Source of the DNA: a virus
Taxonomy: Duplodnaviria > Heunggongvirae > Uroviricota > Caudoviricetes
IMG/VR virus record: IMGVR_UViG_2718217868_000007
Location: 1-11,990 of that record
Strand: one strand, 5' to 3'
Length of the DNA: 11,990 bases
Positions 1 through 11,990 of the stretch are shown piece by piece; the stretch's first letter is position 1; each line of letters opens with the position of its first letter. The notes below the pieces were generated by a model. The model was not told the DNA's origin. It made no database searches and saw only the letters and a list, made by a program, of their open reading frames with translations. Both the position numbers and the translations under genes were made by a program.

Positions 1-981
1 ATGAACGCAATAATATCGCCCGATTATTACTATGTTCTTACCGTTGCTGGTCAGTCTAATGCCATGGCGTATGGCGAAGGACTGCCATTACCGGACAGGG
101 AAGATGCGCCTCATCCCAGAATTAAACAATTAGCGAGATTTGCGCATACGCATCCCGGAGGCCCGTCATGTCACTTTAACGACATTATTCCACTGACTCA
201 CTGCCCACACGATGTTCAGGATATGCAGGGTTATCACCATCCTCTGGCAACGAATCATCAAACACAGTACGGCACCGTTGGCCAGGCACTGCATATTGCA
301 CGGAAATTACTACCCTTTATTCCTGATAATGCAGGGGTTCTCATCGTTCCATGTTGCCGTGGCGGATCGGCTTTTACCGCGGGCAGCGAAGGGACATATT
401 CAGAACGGCACGGAGCCAGCCATGATGCTTGTCGTTGGGGAACGGATACTCCGCTGTACCAGGATTTAGTCAGCAGAACGCGAGCCGCACTGGCAAAAAA
501 TCCGCAGAACAAATTCCTCGGCGTATGCTGGATGCAAGGCGAATTTGACTTAATGACCAGTGACTACGCGTCACACCCTCAACACTTTAATCATATGGTT
601 GAAGCCTTTCGTAGGGATCTAAAACAATACCATTCTCAGCTTAATAATATTACTGACGCACCGTGGTTTTGCGGCGATACCACCTGGTACTGGAAAGAAA
701 ATTTCCCTCATGCGTATGAAGTTATTTATGGCAATTATCAAAATAATGTTTTAGCCAATATTATTTTCGTCTACTTCCAGCAACAAGGTGAAAGAGGACT
801 GACGAACGCGCCTGATGAAGATCCGGACGATTTAAGCACGGGATATTACGGTTCAGCGTACCGGTCACCGGAGAACTGGACGACGGCACTGCGAAGCAGT
901 CATTTCAACACGGCAGCCCGTCGGGGGATTATTTCTGACAGGTTTGTAGAAGCAATTTTGCAGTTTTGGCGCGAAAAGTGA
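1..981 (+). CDS. nanS: SGNH/DUF303-type sialate O-acetylesterase (NanS-like), 326 aa
   Basis: Full-length ORF starting at base 1. N-terminal GQSN block (VAGQSNAMAYGEG) is typical of SGNH/sialate O-acetylesterase hydrolases. The 326-aa length matches my recollection of chromosomal E. coli NanS (YjhS). Assignment is from memory of the family, not a search. Confidence 0.6.
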   Translation: MNAIISPDYYYVLTVAGQSNAMAYGEGLPLPDREDAPHPRIKQLARFAHTHPGGPSCHFNDIIPLTHCPHDVQDMQGYHHPLATNHQTQYGTVGQALHIARKLLPFIPDNAGVLIVPCCRGGSAFTAGSEGTYSERHGASHDACRWGTDTPLYQDLVSRTRAALAKNPQNKFLGVCWMQGEFDLMTSDYASHPQHFNHMVEAFRRDLKQYHSQLNNITDAPWFCGDTTWYWKENFPHAYEVIYGNYQNNVLANIIFVYFQQQGERGLTNAPDEDPDDLSTGYYGSAYRSPENWTTALRSSHFNTAARRGIISDRFVEAILQFWREK

Positions 982-2403: not shown

Positions 2404-4737
2404 TCAGGTTGTTGCAGGGTCGTCACATTTTGGCAGCCAGTCGCCGTAGCTTTCCTCTTTCAGCGTCAGGTTGGTCTGTATCCCCTGTTTGGTATGGCGC
2501 TTCTCGTAATTCAGTCCATATTCCTTCAGCATCACCGGCAGCCCCAGCCCGAACATTTTCAGACTGAGTACATTCCGGTAGCCGTTTGCCTCCATGTAGG
2601 CCAGATAGGCGTGATAGAGGTATTTACGGTAATTACGCGGGATGATACTGGCGTTCCCCATATACATGCCGCTGGTCTGCGGCAGGGTTTCCAGATAGCC
2701 GATAAAATCAAACGTCGGGTCGGCATCCCGTTTGATGTTCAGTGCCTCGTCTGAGTTCTGCTGGGACTGAAGCAGTGACCGGGCGAGCATCGGGTCGCTG
2801 AACTTCTGCATCAGGTGACGCACGATGACCGCCAGCTCGCGGGTGATTTTGTCCTTAAGCTGCGGGTCGCGCTCCTGCGGGGCTATCTGTTCCGGGAAGT
2901 GAATAATCACCCGCCGGCGTGACACGCCGCCGCTGCGGTCGGTGAAGCGCATCGGGTTATTGTTCACGGCCAGAATCACCGCCGGGATATGCGTGGAGTA
3001 CGCATCCCGGTATTTCGGGTCCACGGACACCGCATCGCCGCCGGTGATGGCCTTGAGTCCGGCACCGTCGCCGCTCCATTTTTCCTGGTCCGGCAGGCGT
3101 ATCAGTGAGAAGCCAGTTAACGCGGCACGTTCACGCGGGGATTCCAGCGTCTCGATGGTGGCCGACGTGGCGTTATCCTCCCCGGCCAGCAGGGTGGCTA
3201 TTTCGGCCATGATACTTTTGCCGCTGCCGCCGGGACCGGTCACCTCCAGAAAGAGCTGCCAGTCGTAGCGGTTTGCCAGCACCATAAACAGTGCGGCCAG
3301 AATCACGTCGCGTTTTTCCGCACGGCCACCGGCGGCACGGTCAAGCCAGCGCCAGAACGCGGGGGCGTGGGTCTCCAGCGTTTCACCGTCCACCGGCGGG
3401 GTGAAATCCACATCGCACAGGGTGCGCATCCAGTGTGACGGACTGTGCGGGTGGAACGTGCCGTTCTGCGTGTCGAGCACGCCGTTACGAAAGCCAATCA
3501 GGCGGCGGGAGGGGGCTTCCTGCTGCGGAATAATCAGCTTCAGGGTGTCCACCACGGAGGCCACCTTCCCGGAGGAGAACGGCGCGCGCAGACGCTGAAA
3601 CAGCCCGGCCACATCCCGGGCAAAGTCCTGTGGTGGCAGCACCTTCCAGACACCATTTTCATAACGGGACAGAAGCTGGCCGTTGGCATCGACCGCGAGC
3701 GCCTCGCCGTAATGCTCATAGATACGCATGGCCTTTTCGCTGGTACTCATGGCGGAAAACTCCGCTTCGCTCATGGTGTCGAACGGGCTTTCAGCCGGTG
3801 GCCGGATGGCATCGTAAATGGCCTTACGGGTGGCCTCCCCGCCGTACTGCGTGAAGGCATCATTCCAGTCACCGAAGACCGGCGGCAGGGCAACAACGCC
3901 CTCACACGCATCTGCGGCTGCGGCGGCTTTTTTCTGGCCGTCACCGCTGAGGTCACGGTCTGCGGCAAGGACAATCTGACAGGCCGGATGCTTCTGCCGG
4001 GCAAGGCTGGCCAGAGAAAGGAGATTCACGGAAGAAAGCGCCACCATCACCGTTTCACCGGTCAGGTGATGCACGGTAAGTGCGGTCGCGTATCCCTCCG
4101 CTATCCACAGACGTTTTCCGGCCTGATTCTGTCCTTCAAGGGTGTGACAGGTGCCCCTGACCTGTCCGCCTTTCAGGGTGCGCTTACGGCCGTCAGCACT
4201 GATTAACTGAAGGTTAACCAGTTCGCCGCTGTCGTCATACAGTGGCACCACAAGGTCACCGGCACGCCAGCTCACGCCACCGGCTCTGTGTGTGCCGGTC
4301 AGCATCCGGCATTCCCGGCCGGGAAAGCCCTTGCGGGTCAGGTAGGCGTTACCGGTTCCGGGACGGGTTTTCGCCATCAGGGTTTGTGCCAGTGCGGCGG
4401 CGTTCTTCCGGGCAGCGTCTGTTTCAGCACCGGCGGCAGCCGTCACTGCCGGGTCAGCCGGGGGCAGGCTGCCGGTCACGGCAGCCACCTTTGCGGCCGC
4501 ATCGGACGGGGAAACACCAAACACCTTTTCAACCAGTTTCAGGCCGTCACCGGCACCACACTGATTGCAGTACCAGGTGCCGCGCCCCTCCCTGTCATCA
4601 AAACGGAAGCGGTCACTCCCGCCACAGACCGGACAGGGCTGATGACGGTTTTTCAGCACCTGAATCCCCAGCGCCGGGAGAATACGCGGCCAGTGGCCGA
4701 GCGCATGGCTGACGGTGGCGGTTACGTTCATTTTCAT
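2404..4737 (-). CDS. alpha: P4 alpha-type bifunctional primase-helicase / origin-binding replication protein, 777 aa
   Basis: 777 aa, the same length as P4 alpha. N-terminal zinc-binding primase motif CPVCGG...WYCNQCG, Walker A GPGGSGKS in the central NTPase domain, RBS AGGAG 9 nt upstream of the ATG at 4737. Flanked by TGTTCACC iteron clusters, the known alpha binding sites. Confidence 0.92.
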   Translation of the reverse strand: MKMNVTATVSHALGHWPRILPALGIQVLKNRHQPCPVCGGSDRFRFDDREGRGTWYCNQCGAGDGLKLVEKVFGVSPSDAAAKVAAVTGSLPPADPAVTAAAGAETDAARKNAAALAQTLMAKTRPGTGNAYLTRKGFPGRECRMLTGTHRAGGVSWRAGDLVVPLYDDSGELVNLQLISADGRKRTLKGGQVRGTCHTLEGQNQAGKRLWIAEGYATALTVHHLTGETVMVALSSVNLLSLASLARQKHPACQIVLAADRDLSGDGQKKAAAAADACEGVVALPPVFGDWNDAFTQYGGEATRKAIYDAIRPPAESPFDTMSEAEFSAMSTSEKAMRIYEHYGEALAVDANGQLLSRYENGVWKVLPPQDFARDVAGLFQRLRAPFSSGKVASVVDTLKLIIPQQEAPSRRLIGFRNGVLDTQNGTFHPHSPSHWMRTLCDVDFTPPVDGETLETHAPAFWRWLDRAAGGRAEKRDVILAALFMVLANRYDWQLFLEVTGPGGSGKSIMAEIATLLAGEDNATSATIETLESPRERAALTGFSLIRLPDQEKWSGDGAGLKAITGGDAVSVDPKYRDAYSTHIPAVILAVNNNPMRFTDRSGGVSRRRVIIHFPEQIAPQERDPQLKDKITRELAVIVRHLMQKFSDPMLARSLLQSQQNSDEALNIKRDADPTFDFIGYLETLPQTSGMYMGNASIIPRNYRKYLYHAYLAYMEANGYRNVLSLKMFGLGLPVMLKEYGLNYEKRHTKQGIQTNLTLKEESYGDWLPKCDDPATT

Positions 4738-6133: not shown

Positions 6134-6522
6134 AAGGCAACCTCCGATAACAGCGTAAATGACGCTATCGCCGGAGTTCTCACGCTCGATGGCGATAGCC
6201 CAGACGGGGGTGAGAATACCGGCGTTATCGGAAACCGGCCAGCCCGGAGGCTGCCCCGCCTGAGCTACCATTGACTCAGTGGCATAACATGCGATTGCGA
6301 ACAGGATCATACCTGCACGGCAAACCACACGCCACACCATAATCTGGTGCTCTGTGGCGTTGATTGCGACACAAAAAAAGACGCATGGCGCGTCATATGT
6401 CGCCGATAACATACTCGGGTTCTCACGCCCGGCTGCCGATTTTGCGGCAGCGGAAAAACTATATCCGCAAATGCCGGAAAAAGGCAAGCCAGAAAAAGGG
6501 AGTTTTTGCAGAGCGGGCATCA
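6134..6522 (-). promoter_or_regulatory. untranslated leader of the left operon; candidate early promoter and RNA-based immunity region
   Basis: About 390 bp between vis and the first small gene with no convincing ORF. Contains a terminator-like hairpin and a 9-mer present twice (6403-6411; 6144-6152, abutting the SD) whose complement lies between them (6220-6231). P4 encodes its immunity RNA in this leader. Confidence 0.3.
6373..6394 (-). terminator. terminator-like hairpin plus T-run inside the leader
   Basis: Minus strand reads a 5-bp-stem hairpin GACGC-GCCAT-GCGTC (6380-6394) followed by TTTTTTT (plus-strand A run 6373-6379). The stem is short, so strength is uncertain. Confidence 0.4.
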
Positions 6523-8647: not shown

Positions 8648-9220
8648 ATGGAAAGCACAGCCTTACAGCAGGCCTTTGACACCTGTCAGAATAACAAAGC
8701 AGCATGGCTGCAACGCAAAAATGAGCTGGCTGCGGCCGAACAGGAATATCTGCGGCTTCTGTCCGGGGAAGGCAGAAACGTCAGTCGCCTGGACGAATTA
8801 CGCAATATTATCGAAGTCAGAAAATGGCAGGTGAATCAGGCTGCCGGTCGTTATATTCGTTCGCATGAAGCCGTTCAGCACATCAGCATCCGCGACCGGC
8901 TGAATGATTTTATGCAGCAGCACGGCACAGCACTGGCGGCCGCACTGGCACCGGAGCTGATGGGCTACAGTGAGCTGACGGCCATTGCCCGAAACTGTGC
9001 CATACAGCGTGCCACAGATGCCCTGCGTGAAGCCCTTCTGTCCTGGCTTGCGAAGAGGGAAAAAATTAATTATTCCGCACAGGATAGCGACATTTTAACG
9101 ACCATCGGATTCAGGCCTGACGCGGCTTCGGTGGATGACAGCCGTGAAAAATTCACTCCTGCGCAGAACATGATTTTTTCGCGTAAAAGTGCGCAACTGG
9201 CATCACATCAGTCTGTGTAA
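8648..9220 (+). CDS. psu: Psu-like polarity suppression / capsid decoration protein, 190 aa
   Basis: Third gene of the sid-delta-psu operon, 190 aa as in P4 Psu, followed by a terminator and the cos region. Assigned by synteny and size. Confidence 0.75.
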   Translation: MESTALQQAFDTCQNNKAAWLQRKNELAAAEQEYLRLLSGEGRNVSRLDELRNIIEVRKWQVNQAAGRYIRSHEAVQHISIRDRLNDFMQQHGTALAAALAPELMGYSELTAIARNCAIQRATDALREALLSWLAKREKINYSAQDSDILTTIGFRPDAASVDDSREKFTPAQNMIFSRKSAQLASHQSV

Positions 9221-9250
9221 AACTCCCCGAAAATCCGCCCGTTTTTACTG

Positions 9251-9295
9251 AAAAAAGCCATGCATCGATAAGGTGCATGGCTTTGCATGCGTTTT
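9251..9295 (+). terminator. rho-independent terminator after psu (A-run, 8-bp stem, T-rich tail; possibly bidirectional)
   Basis: A6 (9251-9256), stem GCCATGCA (9257-9264), 9-nt loop, TGCATGGC (9274-9281), then TTTGCATGCGTTTT (9282-9295). Confidence 0.55.
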
Positions 9296-9384
9296 CCTGC
9301 CTCATTTTCTGCAAACCGCGCCATTCCCGGCGCGGCCTGAGCGTGTCAGTGCAACTGCATTAAAACCGCCCCGCAAAGCGGGCG

Positions 9385-9403
9385 GGCGAGGCGGGGAAAG
9401 CAC
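9385..9403. other. cos-like site: P2/P4-type 19-nt cohesive-end sequence
   Basis: Exact 19-mer GGCGAGGCGGGGAAAGCAC, followed by TGCGCGC, which matches the P2/P4 cohesive end as I recall it. Lies between psu and the cargo locus, as expected for a P4-type element. Confidence 0.65.
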
Positions 9404-9838
9404 TGCGCGCCAGCATCAAAGTGTTTAGATAATTTCGCGGCCTGAGGGTGACGACACGTAGTGCAGATTCGTACGAGTGCCTGTTACTGTCGGATACTAT
9501 TCAAGGGCAGCACAACCTATGAAATGACAATGCTAAAGGAGACGAAGAAGCCGCCTTAAGGCGGCATACATCAGTCACTTGTTGGGTGCCGAAGGCGTAA
9601 CTTTTAAATCTGGTCATATAATGTCTTGCAATTTTTTTACATCGTTTATTCGTTGCTATAGTAACCTGTACCAATCCATATACCAGTTTAAAGCCGTCAG
9701 ATAAATTAGGCTATCATGGAGCAGACGGCACGGCGGTACATGAGTAACGTACCTATTTTCTCAACTTGTTTAAGATGCTGTGCAATACTGACGCATGGGA
9801 GCATGCTTCATCATTTTTTTGTATCCGGATATGGAATG

Positions 9839-9866
9839 TTGACAATCAAAATGTTATCAATATCTT
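9839..9866 (+). promoter_or_regulatory. sigma70-like promoter for the Doc/Fic cargo gene (TTGACA, 16-nt spacer, TATCTT)
   Basis: Perfect -35 TTGACA (9839-9844), 16-nt spacer, -10 TATCTT (9861-9866). Gene RBS AAGGA at 9890-9894 and ATG at 9901. Confidence 0.45.
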
Positions 9867-9900
9867 TCATGTGATCTAAAAATCGTAATAAGGATAGTGA

Positions 9901-10629
9901 ATGCGTATTGGAACTGTAGAAGAAATTCACAATTTTTTAAGTGAATACTATATCAACTCCGAAGACCCTATATCCCCACCAGGAGTGAAAGATGTGGGAT
10001 TACTAGAATCAGCGTGTGCAAGACCGTTTGCTTCCGCTGGTGGGCAGGATGCTTTCGGCGATGTATACCACAAAGCAGCAGCACTATTCCATGGAATTAT
10101 TTCCAACCACTGTTTTTATAACGGAAACAAAAGAACCGCATTATTATCAGCCCTTTATTTTTTGAGTGAACATAACCTTTGGTTAGAAAGATGTAATGAT
10201 GAGGAAATGTTTGAATTTACTCGTCAGGTTGCCGCTCATGAAATATGTGAAAAAAGGGATGACGAGATAGATATTATAGCAGATTGGTTTAACAGAAATA
10301 CTCGGCGAATAGTGAAAGGAGAAAAACCCCTTAACTTTTCGAGCCTACGAGAAAGTTTATCTCAATTTGATTTCCAACTAGAAGATGAAGGGCAATATGC
10401 ATTCATCTATAAAAATGGTGAGATCGTTGAGAAAGTGCTAAAAAAAGGGAAGCAAGGAATGCAAGAATATGATCAAGCATATATTGCTGAGCTTCGAAAG
10501 CGCTTAGATTTAACGCCTGAACATGGGGTTGATAGCGCTCGTTTTTATGGGCAGAAAGGTTTAAATGAGGATTTGAATGAATTTATGAAACTTCGTGTAA
10601 AAGTTTTTGATTGGCTAGCCAAGATCTAA
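9901..10629 (+). CDS. Fic/Doc-family protein (Doc-type HxFxNGNKR motif) with ~110-aa uncharacterised C-terminal extension; satellite cargo gene
   Basis: 242 aa. Residues 70-78 HCFYNGNKR (nt 10108-10134) fit the Doc-type HxFx(D/N)(A/G)NKR active-site motif. No Phd-like partner ORF is evident nearby. Markedly AT-rich relative to the P4 backbone. Has its own promoter, RBS and terminator. Confidence 0.85.
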   Translation: MRIGTVEEIHNFLSEYYINSEDPISPPGVKDVGLLESACARPFASAGGQDAFGDVYHKAAALFHGIISNHCFYNGNKRTALLSALYFLSEHNLWLERCNDEEMFEFTRQVAAHEICEKRDDEIDIIADWFNRNTRRIVKGEKPLNFSSLRESLSQFDFQLEDEGQYAFIYKNGEIVEKVLKKGKQGMQEYDQAYIAELRKRLDLTPEHGVDSARFYGQKGLNEDLNEFMKLRVKVFDWLAKI

Positions 10630-10635
10630 AACTTA

Positions 10636-10660
10636 AGAAGCCTGCGTTTCGCAGGCTTCT
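10636..10660. terminator. hairpin terminator between the convergent Doc/Fic gene and int
   Basis: Perfect inverted repeat AGAAGCCTGCG-TTT-CGCAGGCTTCT with AT-rich flanks on both sides, placed between two convergent stop codons (10629 and 10731). Confidence 0.5.
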
Positions 10661-10730
10661 ATTATTAAAATCAGAAAAGCACCACTTTAAATATAACATT
10701 TAACGAAATTGCGTACTATTAATAATAAAT

Positions 10731-11990
10731 TTACACCTGCCTTTTTGCGAAATCGTATGGTGTAATATAATCAACAGTGTTTTTTTCAAGATAATCGGCC
10801 CACCACTGTACCATCAAACGACGTTCATCCAAATGCTCAGATGTATGGATATAAGCTGCACGTACATTATTACGCTCTGAATGGCTCAACTGTCGTTCTA
10901 TCGCGTCATCACTCCATAACCCTGACTCACCGAGCGCTCCACGCGCCATCGTCCTAAATCCATGCCCGCAAACCTCGGTTTTCGTGTCATACCCCATCGC
11001 ACGCAATGCGCTGTTTACCGTGTTTTCACTCATAACTTTAGTTGCGTCATGATCCCCCGGAAAGAGTAGCTCTTTATCACCACTAATCTGTTTTAACTGG
11101 TCTAACAAAATCATCGCCTGCCAACTAAGAGGAACAATATGCTCCTCTTTCATCTTCATGCCACGATACGAGTAACGAACACCTTTAATTTCTTCTCGTT
11201 TTGCAGGTATACGCCAAAGCGATTTATCGAAGTCGAACTCATCCCAACGTGCGAAACGTAACTCACTGGAACGCACAAAAGTTAGTAATGAAAGTTCGAC
11301 CGCGATCCGTGTCATTACACGGCCACGATATGCCGCAAGACGTGCGAGAAACTCAGGAAACCGGCTAGAGGGTAGAGCTGGATAGTGTCGCGCTTTAGTT
11401 GTCGATAAAGCACCGGCCATATCACTGGCTGGATTTGAGTCGATGTAATCGTTCTGTACGGCATAACGCATAATGGCCGTAACGCGCTGCTGAAGACGCT
11501 GCGCCACGTCATGCTTACCACTGGCATCAACTTTTTTAATCGGGGCTAACAAGTGACTGGTTTTGAGCTGGCGAATGTCGGACAAACCGATATGAGGGAA
11601 GATATAAAGCTCAAGGTAGCGAAGAACGCGCGATCGATGATCTTCACTCCAGCGCTTGTTACTAGCATGCCATTCACGAGCAATGGTTTCGAAAGTATAT
11701 GCCCCCGAATTCTCAGCCTTAGCTTCCTTCTGTTCGGCTTTTGGGTCAATGCCCTGCACTAACAGCTTTTTAGCTTCGTCACGCTTTGCTCTTGCCTGAG
11801 CAAGGGTCACAGTGGGCCAAACACCAAAAGCGAGGCGATCCTCTTTTTTGTCAGAGGGACGTCTGTATTTCATGCGCCAGTATTTAGAACCCTTGGCCGA
11901 AACCTCGAGATACAAACCGCCGCCATCGGCCATTTTGTAGGTTTTGTCTTTTGGCTTTGCGGTCTCGACTTGTCTGGCGTTGAGCTTCAT
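10731..11990 (-). CDS. int: P4-type tyrosine integrase, 419 aa
   Basis: N-terminus MKLNARQVETAKPKDKTYKMADGGGLYLEV is characteristic of P4-family integrases. C-terminal catalytic region has H-x-x-R (GHGFRTMARG) and the tyrosine in RAAYIH. The ATG is the last codon of the window, so the promoter and tRNA/att site are off-window. Confidence 0.93.
   Translation of the reverse strand: MKLNARQVETAKPKDKTYKMADGGGLYLEVSAKGSKYWRMKYRRPSDKKEDRLAFGVWPTVTLAQARAKRDEAKKLLVQGIDPKAEQKEAKAENSGAYTFETIAREWHASNKRWSEDHRSRVLRYLELYIFPHIGLSDIRQLKTSHLLAPIKKVDASGKHDVAQRLQQRVTAIMRYAVQNDYIDSNPASDMAGALSTTKARHYPALPSSRFPEFLARLAAYRGRVMTRIAVELSLLTFVRSSELRFARWDEFDFDKSLWRIPAKREEIKGVRYSYRGMKMKEEHIVPLSWQAMILLDQLKQISGDKELLFPGDHDATKVMSENTVNSALRAMGYDTKTEVCGHGFRTMARGALGESGLWSDDAIERQLSHSERNNVRAAYIHTSEHLDERRLMVQWWADYLEKNTVDYITPYDFAKRQV

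Follow-up and report, generated by a model that had tools for sequence, protein, structure and literature searches.

In the type II toxin-antitoxin system phd-doc of P1, a phd-like gene lies upstream of the toxin gene. The Doc-like cargo gene described here, which follows a spacer of 497 nt in a P4-like satellite prophage, has no such gene upstream, either here or at any of ~30 related loci, and its product is twice as long as P1 Doc, with a conserved extra domain and no similarity to Phd. Type III systems (ToxIN, CptIN, TenpIN) have an RNA antitoxin upstream of the toxin, and this locus resembles them in the non-coding stretch before its toxin gene and in its mobile, defence-associated setting. 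However, type III antitoxins consist of tandem direct repeats that a sequence-specific endoribonuclease toxin processes, and a terminator separates these repeats from the toxin gene, whereas here there are no repeats, the toxin has a Doc-type kinase fold rather than that of an RNase, and the only hairpin of the spacer is on the opposite strand. With fused toxin-antitoxins such as CapRel-SJ46 and EzeT and with class II/III Fic proteins, which have an intramolecular inhibitory helix, the cargo gene shares a monocistronic arrangement, a toxin domain and a conserved extra domain in one polypeptide, carriage on prophages and satellites and the lack of a partner gene. The (S/T)xxxE(G/N) inhibitory motif of Fic proteins was not seen, on inspection, in the conserved part of the C-terminal domain. 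Finally, phage ‘morons’ are single accessory genes with their own promoter and terminator and a deviating GC content. The cargo gene, at 38% GC in a backbone of ~48-61% GC, with a promoter-like site before it and a hairpin terminator after it, shows no difference of substance from these, and a moron is the best functional description of the cargo unit.

The genomic position is also a described one. P4-like satellites have a variable hotspot between cos and int (Rousset et al. 2022; PMC9122126), represented in P4 itself by the gop-beta-cII ‘non-essential region’, and the cargo described here lies at the same psu/cos-int position, with content varying among homologous elements. Hotspot cargo is expressed from a native promoter, to which we liken the arrangement here. 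Table S1 of that study lists the locus analysed here (NZ_CP010169 and NZ_CP010170, from the carrier strains E. coli H5 and H6) as a single-gene hotspot, ‘Fic WP_073464939’, and a follow-up (NAR 2026; PMC13586616) ascribes small intergenic remnants at hotspot loci to intense or frequent recombination. The two papers contain nothing specific to this spacer. Fic/Doc cargo appears in their hotspot inventory tables only and is absent from the other supplementary files searched, so no test of that cargo was found, and a literature search found no mention of WP_073464939 in the text of any paper. The spacer is of an already known kind, the DNA ahead of a moron that consists of one gene and sits in a described hotspot, and its 497 nt are in our judgement quite probably an ordinary promoter/leader region plus recombination filler, with no hidden gene.

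The window, meaning the entire 11,990-nt stretch of DNA analysed, is a P4-like satellite prophage with the gene order alpha primase, CI RNA, sid-delta-psu, cos, one cargo gene and int. Its landmarks outside the spacer are as follows.

2404-4737, minus strand: alpha primase, 777 aa, with a primase domain match
6188-6275: CI/C4 immunity RNA, with an RNA family match
8648-9220: psu, following sid and delta (Ogr_Delta)
9385-9403: cos cohesive end, 19 nt, GGCGAGGCGGGGAAAGCAC, directly left of the spacer
9901-10629, plus strand: cargo gene, encoding a 242-aa protein with a Doc domain and a HicA-fold C-terminal domain
10636-10660: GC-rich terminator-like hairpin between the convergent cargo gene and int, the right end of the cargo unit
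10731-11990, minus strand: tyrosine integrase gene

Domain matches in the window cover the alpha primase, Ogr/Delta, Psu and the integrase, and identity to phage P4 at the psu-cos end amounts to 97.8%. Spacer and cargo sit between this psu-cos end and the integrase gene in an element with P4 core genes, and the hotspot content varies between elements with homologous flanks. In RefSeq, the E. coli H6 locus reads psu, ‘death-on-curing family toxin’, int and tRNA-Leu, with the gap between psu and the toxin gene unannotated. The 19-nt cohesive end was placed at 9385-9403 because the P4 record stops at window position 9384 and restarts with GGCGAGGCGGGGAAAGCAC; every related P4-like locus carries this 19-mer, altered at no more than 4 positions.

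The original prediction had treated the whole of 9404-9900 as DNA upstream of the cargo gene. Its first 43 nt are instead the right flank of cos: homology of P2-like helper phages to the window ends by ~9446, and 19 further E. coli genomes match, at blastn sensitivity, only the first 43-62 nt past the cos cut, with unrelated cargo in all three of those inspected. Since backbone homology ends at ~9446, all DNA to the right of this point belongs to this cargo variant. The complete 497-nt spacer occurs in 8 of 5426 complete E. coli genomes, each time adjoining the cargo gene. A gap of ~500 nt is not unusual at this site, as the first cargo gene begins 246 nt past the cos cut in P4 (gop) and 246, 357 and 522 nt past it in three other P4-like elements. 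The spacer would in this respect look as P4-like hotspots normally do next to cos, with a backbone flank, filler and a native promoter.

For comparison, ~40 loci of cargo relatives were fetched; the cargo cluster (P0001) has entries in 106 blocks of the genome collection used. Across viral, metagenome and genome collections and clusters of truncated genes, positions 9447-9885 are known in three distinct alleles only. Allele A comprises the window, L114 and the E. coli genomes 400660 and NCTC9088, both of which lack 12 nt (9486-9497); allele B comprises L105 and L115, with a Doc protein 99% identical to that of the window; and allele C is Klebsiella L084, with a Doc protein 95% identical and a 34-nt deletion in the spacer. 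From left to right, the spacer consists of the following parts.

9404-9446: right flank of cos, 43 nt of packaging backbone common to P2-like and P4-like elements
9447-9549: distal spacer, ~50% GC and unconstrained, with 18% and 52% substitutions relative to alleles B and C, respectively
9541-9565, minus strand: terminator-like hairpin GCCGCC-TTAA-GGCGGC followed by TTCTTCGTCT, with the stem running from 9565 to 9550 and the T-rich tail to ~9541
9566-9838: AT-rich non-coding filler holding two distal promoter-like motifs and most of a 52-codon open reading frame (ORF)
9839-9866, plus strand: candidate sigma-70 promoter of the cargo gene, TTGACA-16-TATCTT, matching 10 of 12 consensus positions
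9849-9863: invariant 15-mer AAATGTTATCAATAT, lying between the -35 and -10 elements of the plus-strand promoter and the same in all three alleles
9889-9893, plus strand: ribosome-binding site (RBS) AAGGA, 7 nt before the ATG at 9901

Substitutions at 9446-9885 were compared with those at fourfold-degenerate sites of the adjacent coding sequence (CDS) by Fisher test. Between alleles A and B, 43 of 440 spacer positions differ (9.8%) as against 7 of 81 fourfold sites (8.6%; p=1); between A and C, the spacer has 166 substitutions in 405 positions (41%) plus 39 indel columns, as against 30 of 80 fourfold sites (37.5%; p=0.62). The spacer overall evolves like neutral DNA. The original prediction had named a lack of spacer conservation at homologous loci among the observations that would count against it, and this lack is what the comparison shows: the spacer diverges at the neutral rate and is missing from other elements that carry the gene. 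Better-kept blocks relative to the Klebsiella allele are 9541-9624 (~30% divergence), the proximal 85 nt (29%), the RBS (0%) and the cos flank at 9404-9446 (13%, compared with 41% in the rest of the spacer), none of them significantly different among three alleles, a number that gives constraint tests low power for short elements. Nothing homologous to the distal spacer at 9447-9549 exists at other places in E. coli genomes or in phages, and this part is probably a recombination remnant. In Klebsiella L085 and L086, an insertion sequence (IS) of ~0.9 kb with a 5-bp overlap lies at -231 to -227 (~window 9674) beside an intact Doc ORF, an arrangement found in several assemblies; spacer continuity across that point is thus dispensable. 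The 12-nt and 34-nt deletions are likewise tolerated. We note that the IS in these two loci displaces the distal spacer without deleting any of it.

The three promoter-like motifs of the original prediction are all present, as confirmed by direct reading and by a scan: TATAAT at 9617-9622, the extended -10 TGcTATAGT at 9654-9662 with TTTACA at 9636-9641 and a 15-nt spacing, and TTGACA-16-TATCTT at 9839-9866. Their abundance, which had been taken as a feature of the region, is no higher than chance, with 3 sites observed across 9100-10800 (a consensus scan of 1.7 kb) versus 4.1 +/- 1.8 in dinucleotide shuffles. The proximal site is identical in alleles A and B, and allele C has instead a TTGTTG-16-TATAAT pair ~20 nt upstream. 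Translation signals are also retained: TAATAAGGATAGTGAATG around the RBS is identical in all three alleles, and more distant loci keep an AGGA or GGA motif at this place. These patterns suggest that 9839-9866 is most likely the sigma-70 promoter of the cargo gene, with a predicted start near 9873, and that the proximal ~100 nt probably carry the gene’s own promoter and RBS. The proposal of a region regulating the Doc-like gene probably holds for these proximal ~100 nt, kept in alleles A and B and with the same RBS in all three, and is not supported in its small-RNA part.

We favour the following scheme. The left part of the spacer is the 43 nt of cos flank belonging to the packaging backbone. 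The middle part would be ~390 nt of filler travelling with the cargo in three closely related alleles and evolving neutrally, probably a leftover of the recombination that swaps hotspot cargo, and holding one retained minus-strand hairpin that may block leftward transcription into cos and psu. The right part, ~60-100 nt, would contain the cargo gene’s own sigma-70 promoter and RBS. The Doc-like gene would be a monocistronic unit, transcribed from 9839-9866 with a ~28-nt leader and terminated at 10636-10660, the latter hairpin having an equivalent in the Klebsiella allele. The spacer itself would encode no antitoxin, and control of the toxin would be built into the protein. For cloning of this cargo, no hidden antitoxin is to be expected upstream, and the signals for native expression should lie within the ~100 nt that precede the gene.

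An unlikely alternative is that the distal sites at 9617 and 9657 are real promoters giving the Doc mRNA a regulatory leader of 240-280 nt, or that the AT-rich tract is a platform on which nucleoid proteins such as H-NS silence the toxin gene. H-NS typically targets genes that E. coli has acquired horizontally and that are rich in AT. The distal motifs are present, and one has an extended -10, but both decay across alleles: TATAAT reads TATACT in allele B and TCTCCT in allele C, and the TTTACA-15-TGcTATAGT pair is mutated in B and falls inside the 34-nt deletion in C. The IS at ~9674 moreover parts these motifs from the gene in Klebsiella, and the region gives no signal of leader structure. 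A silencing platform would fit the composition of 9571-9900, which has 37% GC and several T/A tracts. The sharp shift to AT-rich DNA that had been placed downstream of cos is real, although it begins only at ~9571 (9404-9570 has 50% GC), and the AT-richness of the tract equals that of the CDS (38% GC), so that it mirrors the origin of the cargo rather than marking a dedicated element. Silencing by nucleoid proteins is in any case compatible with the promoter-plus-filler explanation and not its competitor.

It is very unlikely that the spacer encodes an RNA that neutralizes or regulates the Doc-like toxin, be it a small RNA, an RNA antitoxin as in type III systems or an antisense RNA as in type I systems; for this stretch, a small RNA, for example an RNA antitoxin, had been suggested. 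The absence of a protein antitoxin invites such a reading, and searches for RNA signals speak against it. Rfam 15 gave no gathering-level match across 9221-10000 and none at E<=10 inside the spacer, where the best sub-threshold score was 16.7 bits against a cut-off of 75. Tandem Repeats Finder (TRF; minimum score 30) detected no tandem repeats, the type III hallmark, and a repeat finder returned only short two-copy repeats of the kind expected by chance; since there is no repeat array, we discard the idea of an antitoxin like ToxI. In sliding windows of 100 nt on either strand, fold z-scores ranged from -2.0 to +2.1, with none below -2.1, and the RNAalifold covariation term was +0.45, with one both-sides change in 18 pairs, a comparison of 3 sequences with low power. 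The gene is also found elsewhere behind 13-250 nt of unrelated upstream DNA.

The concrete form of this reading is a lineage-specific minus-strand RNA of ~300 nt, to which we give similarly little probability. Such an RNA would start at the extended -10 TGATAACAT (9859 to 9851), which is read on the minus strand within the invariant block at 9849-9863, and would end at the hairpin with its stem at 9565 to 9550; both features are retained, the terminator-like hairpin in all three alleles. The body between them diverges at the neutral rate, bears the 34-nt deletion in Klebsiella and is split by the ~0.9-kb IS in Klebsiella genomes with an intact Doc. It is equally doubtful that this RNA modulates expression or activity of the toxin, possibly by promoter interference at overlapping back-to-back divergent promoters. 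Its coordinates imply a transcript that would run divergent from the predicted Doc mRNA without overlapping it and would not be antisense to it. If real, this would be the first description of a Doc-family toxin under control at the RNA level.

The promoter-plus-filler explanation also agrees with the coding content of the spacer. The original prediction found no antitoxin-sized ORF, and this stands: no stop-free run exceeds 69 codons, where 1000 shuffles average 71, ORF lengths are as expected by chance, and six-frame stop-free segments match nothing in Pfam or PHROGs, leaving no decayed-gene remnant. The 56-codon ORF reported at 9716-9886 is in fact 9716-9874, 52 codons plus a stop. That this ORF, which ends 27 nt before the toxin start in the place expected of a type II antitoxin and is open at the same length and coordinates in the Klebsiella allele (37% amino-acid identity), serves as a small antitoxin protein or as an upstream ORF with a regulatory role is so improbable that it can be set aside, as a 2-nt insertion frameshifts it in L105 and L115 (the former with an intact, 99% identical Doc), it is missing upstream of an 88%-identical gene in lambdoid prophages and at all other loci, its Shine-Dalgarno sequence is weak, the best promoter-like site sits within it, its length is as expected by chance and it has no family match, its product is hydrophobic, Cys-rich and unlike Phd, and its residual similarity falls in the nucleotide-conserved promoter part. 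The insertion in allele B and the shuffle length test were the grounds on which it was rejected as a gene. A 57-codon minus-strand ORF has mostly non-synonymous changes in allele B, extends across the hairpin and is hit by the 34-nt deletion in allele C.

The minus-strand hairpin is the sole element of the distal spacer kept in all three alleles; scans of these alleles called it at homologous sites in the window, Klebsiella L084 and L105. The stem in L084 is re-formed with a register shift, as GCCTC-AGG-GAGGC followed by TTTTTC, a better T-run. RNAalifold on the hairpin region of the three alleles found no column-wise covariation and did not recover the hairpin, the latter owing to the register shift between alleles. 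The hairpin may keep leftward transcription out of cos and the psu operon. Alternatively, it could be a relic, the terminator of a former cargo on the minus strand; where the cargo of two further P4-like elements is on that strand, no minus-strand terminator was found next to cos at the equivalent place, so a relic origin is put forward only conditionally. We note that neutrality leaves two retained features of the spacer unexplained, the minus-strand hairpin with its T-run and the 15-mer at 9849-9863.

The gene itself, a member of a widespread solitary family joining a Doc domain to a HicA-fold domain, accounts better for the missing antitoxin than the spacer does. Full-length homologues number in the hundreds, at 55-95% identity, and occur in Proteobacteria, Desulfovibrio, Bacillota and others; they are of constant size (242 residues, give or take a few) and solitary at every locus seen. 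The toxin domain has a Doc/Fic fold with a Doc-type catalytic core. The C-terminal half matches the Doc half in degree of conservation and has a HicA/dsRBD-like alpha-beta-beta-beta-alpha fold, although residues 132-242 have no Pfam match even at E<=10 and do not fall in HicA_toxin. No histidine beyond H113 is invariant or nearly invariant in the family, and the HicA-like domain is without one. A fused Phd-like segment is not apparent, as a profile comparison of the family with P1 Phd gave a probability of 0.4%. No adjacent co-oriented antitoxin gene of the Phd/YefM, AbrB/MazE, Xre or YhfG type is conserved across 22 distant and 8 close loci, and the 22 distant loci have neither a neighbouring ORF nor upstream DNA in common. 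Recurrent upstream ORFs of ~330 aa at distant loci proved unrelated to one another. By analogy with one-polypeptide systems, the toxin domain may be controlled intramolecularly, via the HicA-fold C-terminal domain and the terminal helix, and low expression of the AT-rich cargo gene may contribute. We found no description of a Doc-HicA-fold fusion in the literature, and Gerdes’ survey of 14 HicA contexts has no occurrence of ‘Doc’ or ‘Fic’. The antitoxin question accordingly shifts to the protein, as a Doc plus HicA-fold family that recurs on satellites, prophages and inoviruses.

The contexts of the gene are diverse. In other P4-like elements carrying it, cos lies 187-250 nt upstream (L091, L093 and L102); in a lambdoid prophage, it is found next to dinI, 300 nt away and in the opposite orientation; it occurs in Vibrio inoviruses; and in an Actinobacillus genome, it lies between guaB and guaA, with gaps of only 13-19 nt to the former and 16 nt to the latter. 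The upstream DNA in these other contexts has no detectable similarity to the window spacer, except for cos itself (L091 and L093). The gene has also been lost at times, through an IS5 at ~window 10004 in L114 and through frameshifts in L115, L116 and the Vibrio inovirus copies.

The cargo gene of the satellite encodes a protein composed of a Doc domain, a C-terminal domain of the HicA/dsRBD fold and a terminal helix, and its family is fixed in length at ~242 amino acids, with 55-95% identity across phyla.

9901-10629, plus strand: cargo coding sequence (alignment A1; homologue loci L005-L024)

Genes of this family are solitary in every case and are carried by P4-like satellites, one lambdoid prophage and Vibrio inoviruses, while in an Actinobacillus genome the gene sits between guaB and guaA. 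Gerdes' 2024 survey, which covers 14 HicA contexts, mentions neither 'Doc' nor 'Fic'; no member of the family was found in the set of systems that Rousset et al. 2022 tested.

The Doc-like gene has been inactivated repeatedly (homologue loci L114, L115, L116 and L003). The E. coli-type element of L114 has an IS5 (~1100-2297; window ~10004) in the gene at about codon 35, the reading frame is split into 48 and 140 amino acids in L115 (2195-2923) and L116, and three records of Vibrio inoviruses have a frameshift near codon 33 in common (L003, 2941-3673). This recurrent loss could reflect a cost of carriage or ordinary decay.

The spacer between cos and the cargo gene carries an insertion in the Klebsiella allele, where L085 and L086 have an IS at ~1858-2770, equivalent to window ~9674, with a gene for a 281-aa transposase (DDE_Tnp_1). 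The Doc gene is intact downstream, at a distance of 227-231 nt, and the insertion is seen in several assemblies. Closer to the gene, the block AAATGTTATCAATAT (9849-9863) is without variation in all three spacer alleles, and its flanks do vary. This block falls within the spacer of the plus-strand promoter predicted for the cargo gene, and its minus-strand sequence has the form of an extended -10 element (TGATAACAT).

A direct repeat, CGCGGCCTGAG(C/G)GTG, occurs on either side of the cos cut at 9331-9345 and 9436-9450, with the copies 105 nt apart, and could belong to the packaging signal. The Klebsiella allele likewise has the core of the right copy, GGCGGCCTG.

Some loci have a further ORF beside the homologue. 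In Pseudomonas putida (L010), two Doc-type genes lie in tandem: the 242-aa homologue (2986-3714) is preceded, across a gap of 19 nt, by a shorter ORF (2479-2967) of 162 aa with a Fic/Doc domain (Pfam Fic, 9e-9). Three metagenome contigs (L096-L098) carry P0007, a homologue with 68% identity, and in 3/3 a 295-aa ORF without a Pfam match begins 27 nt after the Doc-like gene; this ORF, found only in the P0007 lineage, may be a lineage-specific partner.

Elsewhere in the satellite, Rfam matches at 6188-6464 on the minus strand (C4 antisense RNA, 76 bits; isrK, 71 bits; c4 a1/b1 target, 51 bits) mark its P4-type RNA immunity region. The window starts with an ORF for a carbohydrate esterase.

1-981, plus strand: SASA-family carbohydrate acetylesterase ORF, 326 aa

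An AT-rich stretch (1351-2250; 37-43% GC) follows this ORF, downstream of alpha, and together the two may represent either a second cargo region of the satellite or host flank.
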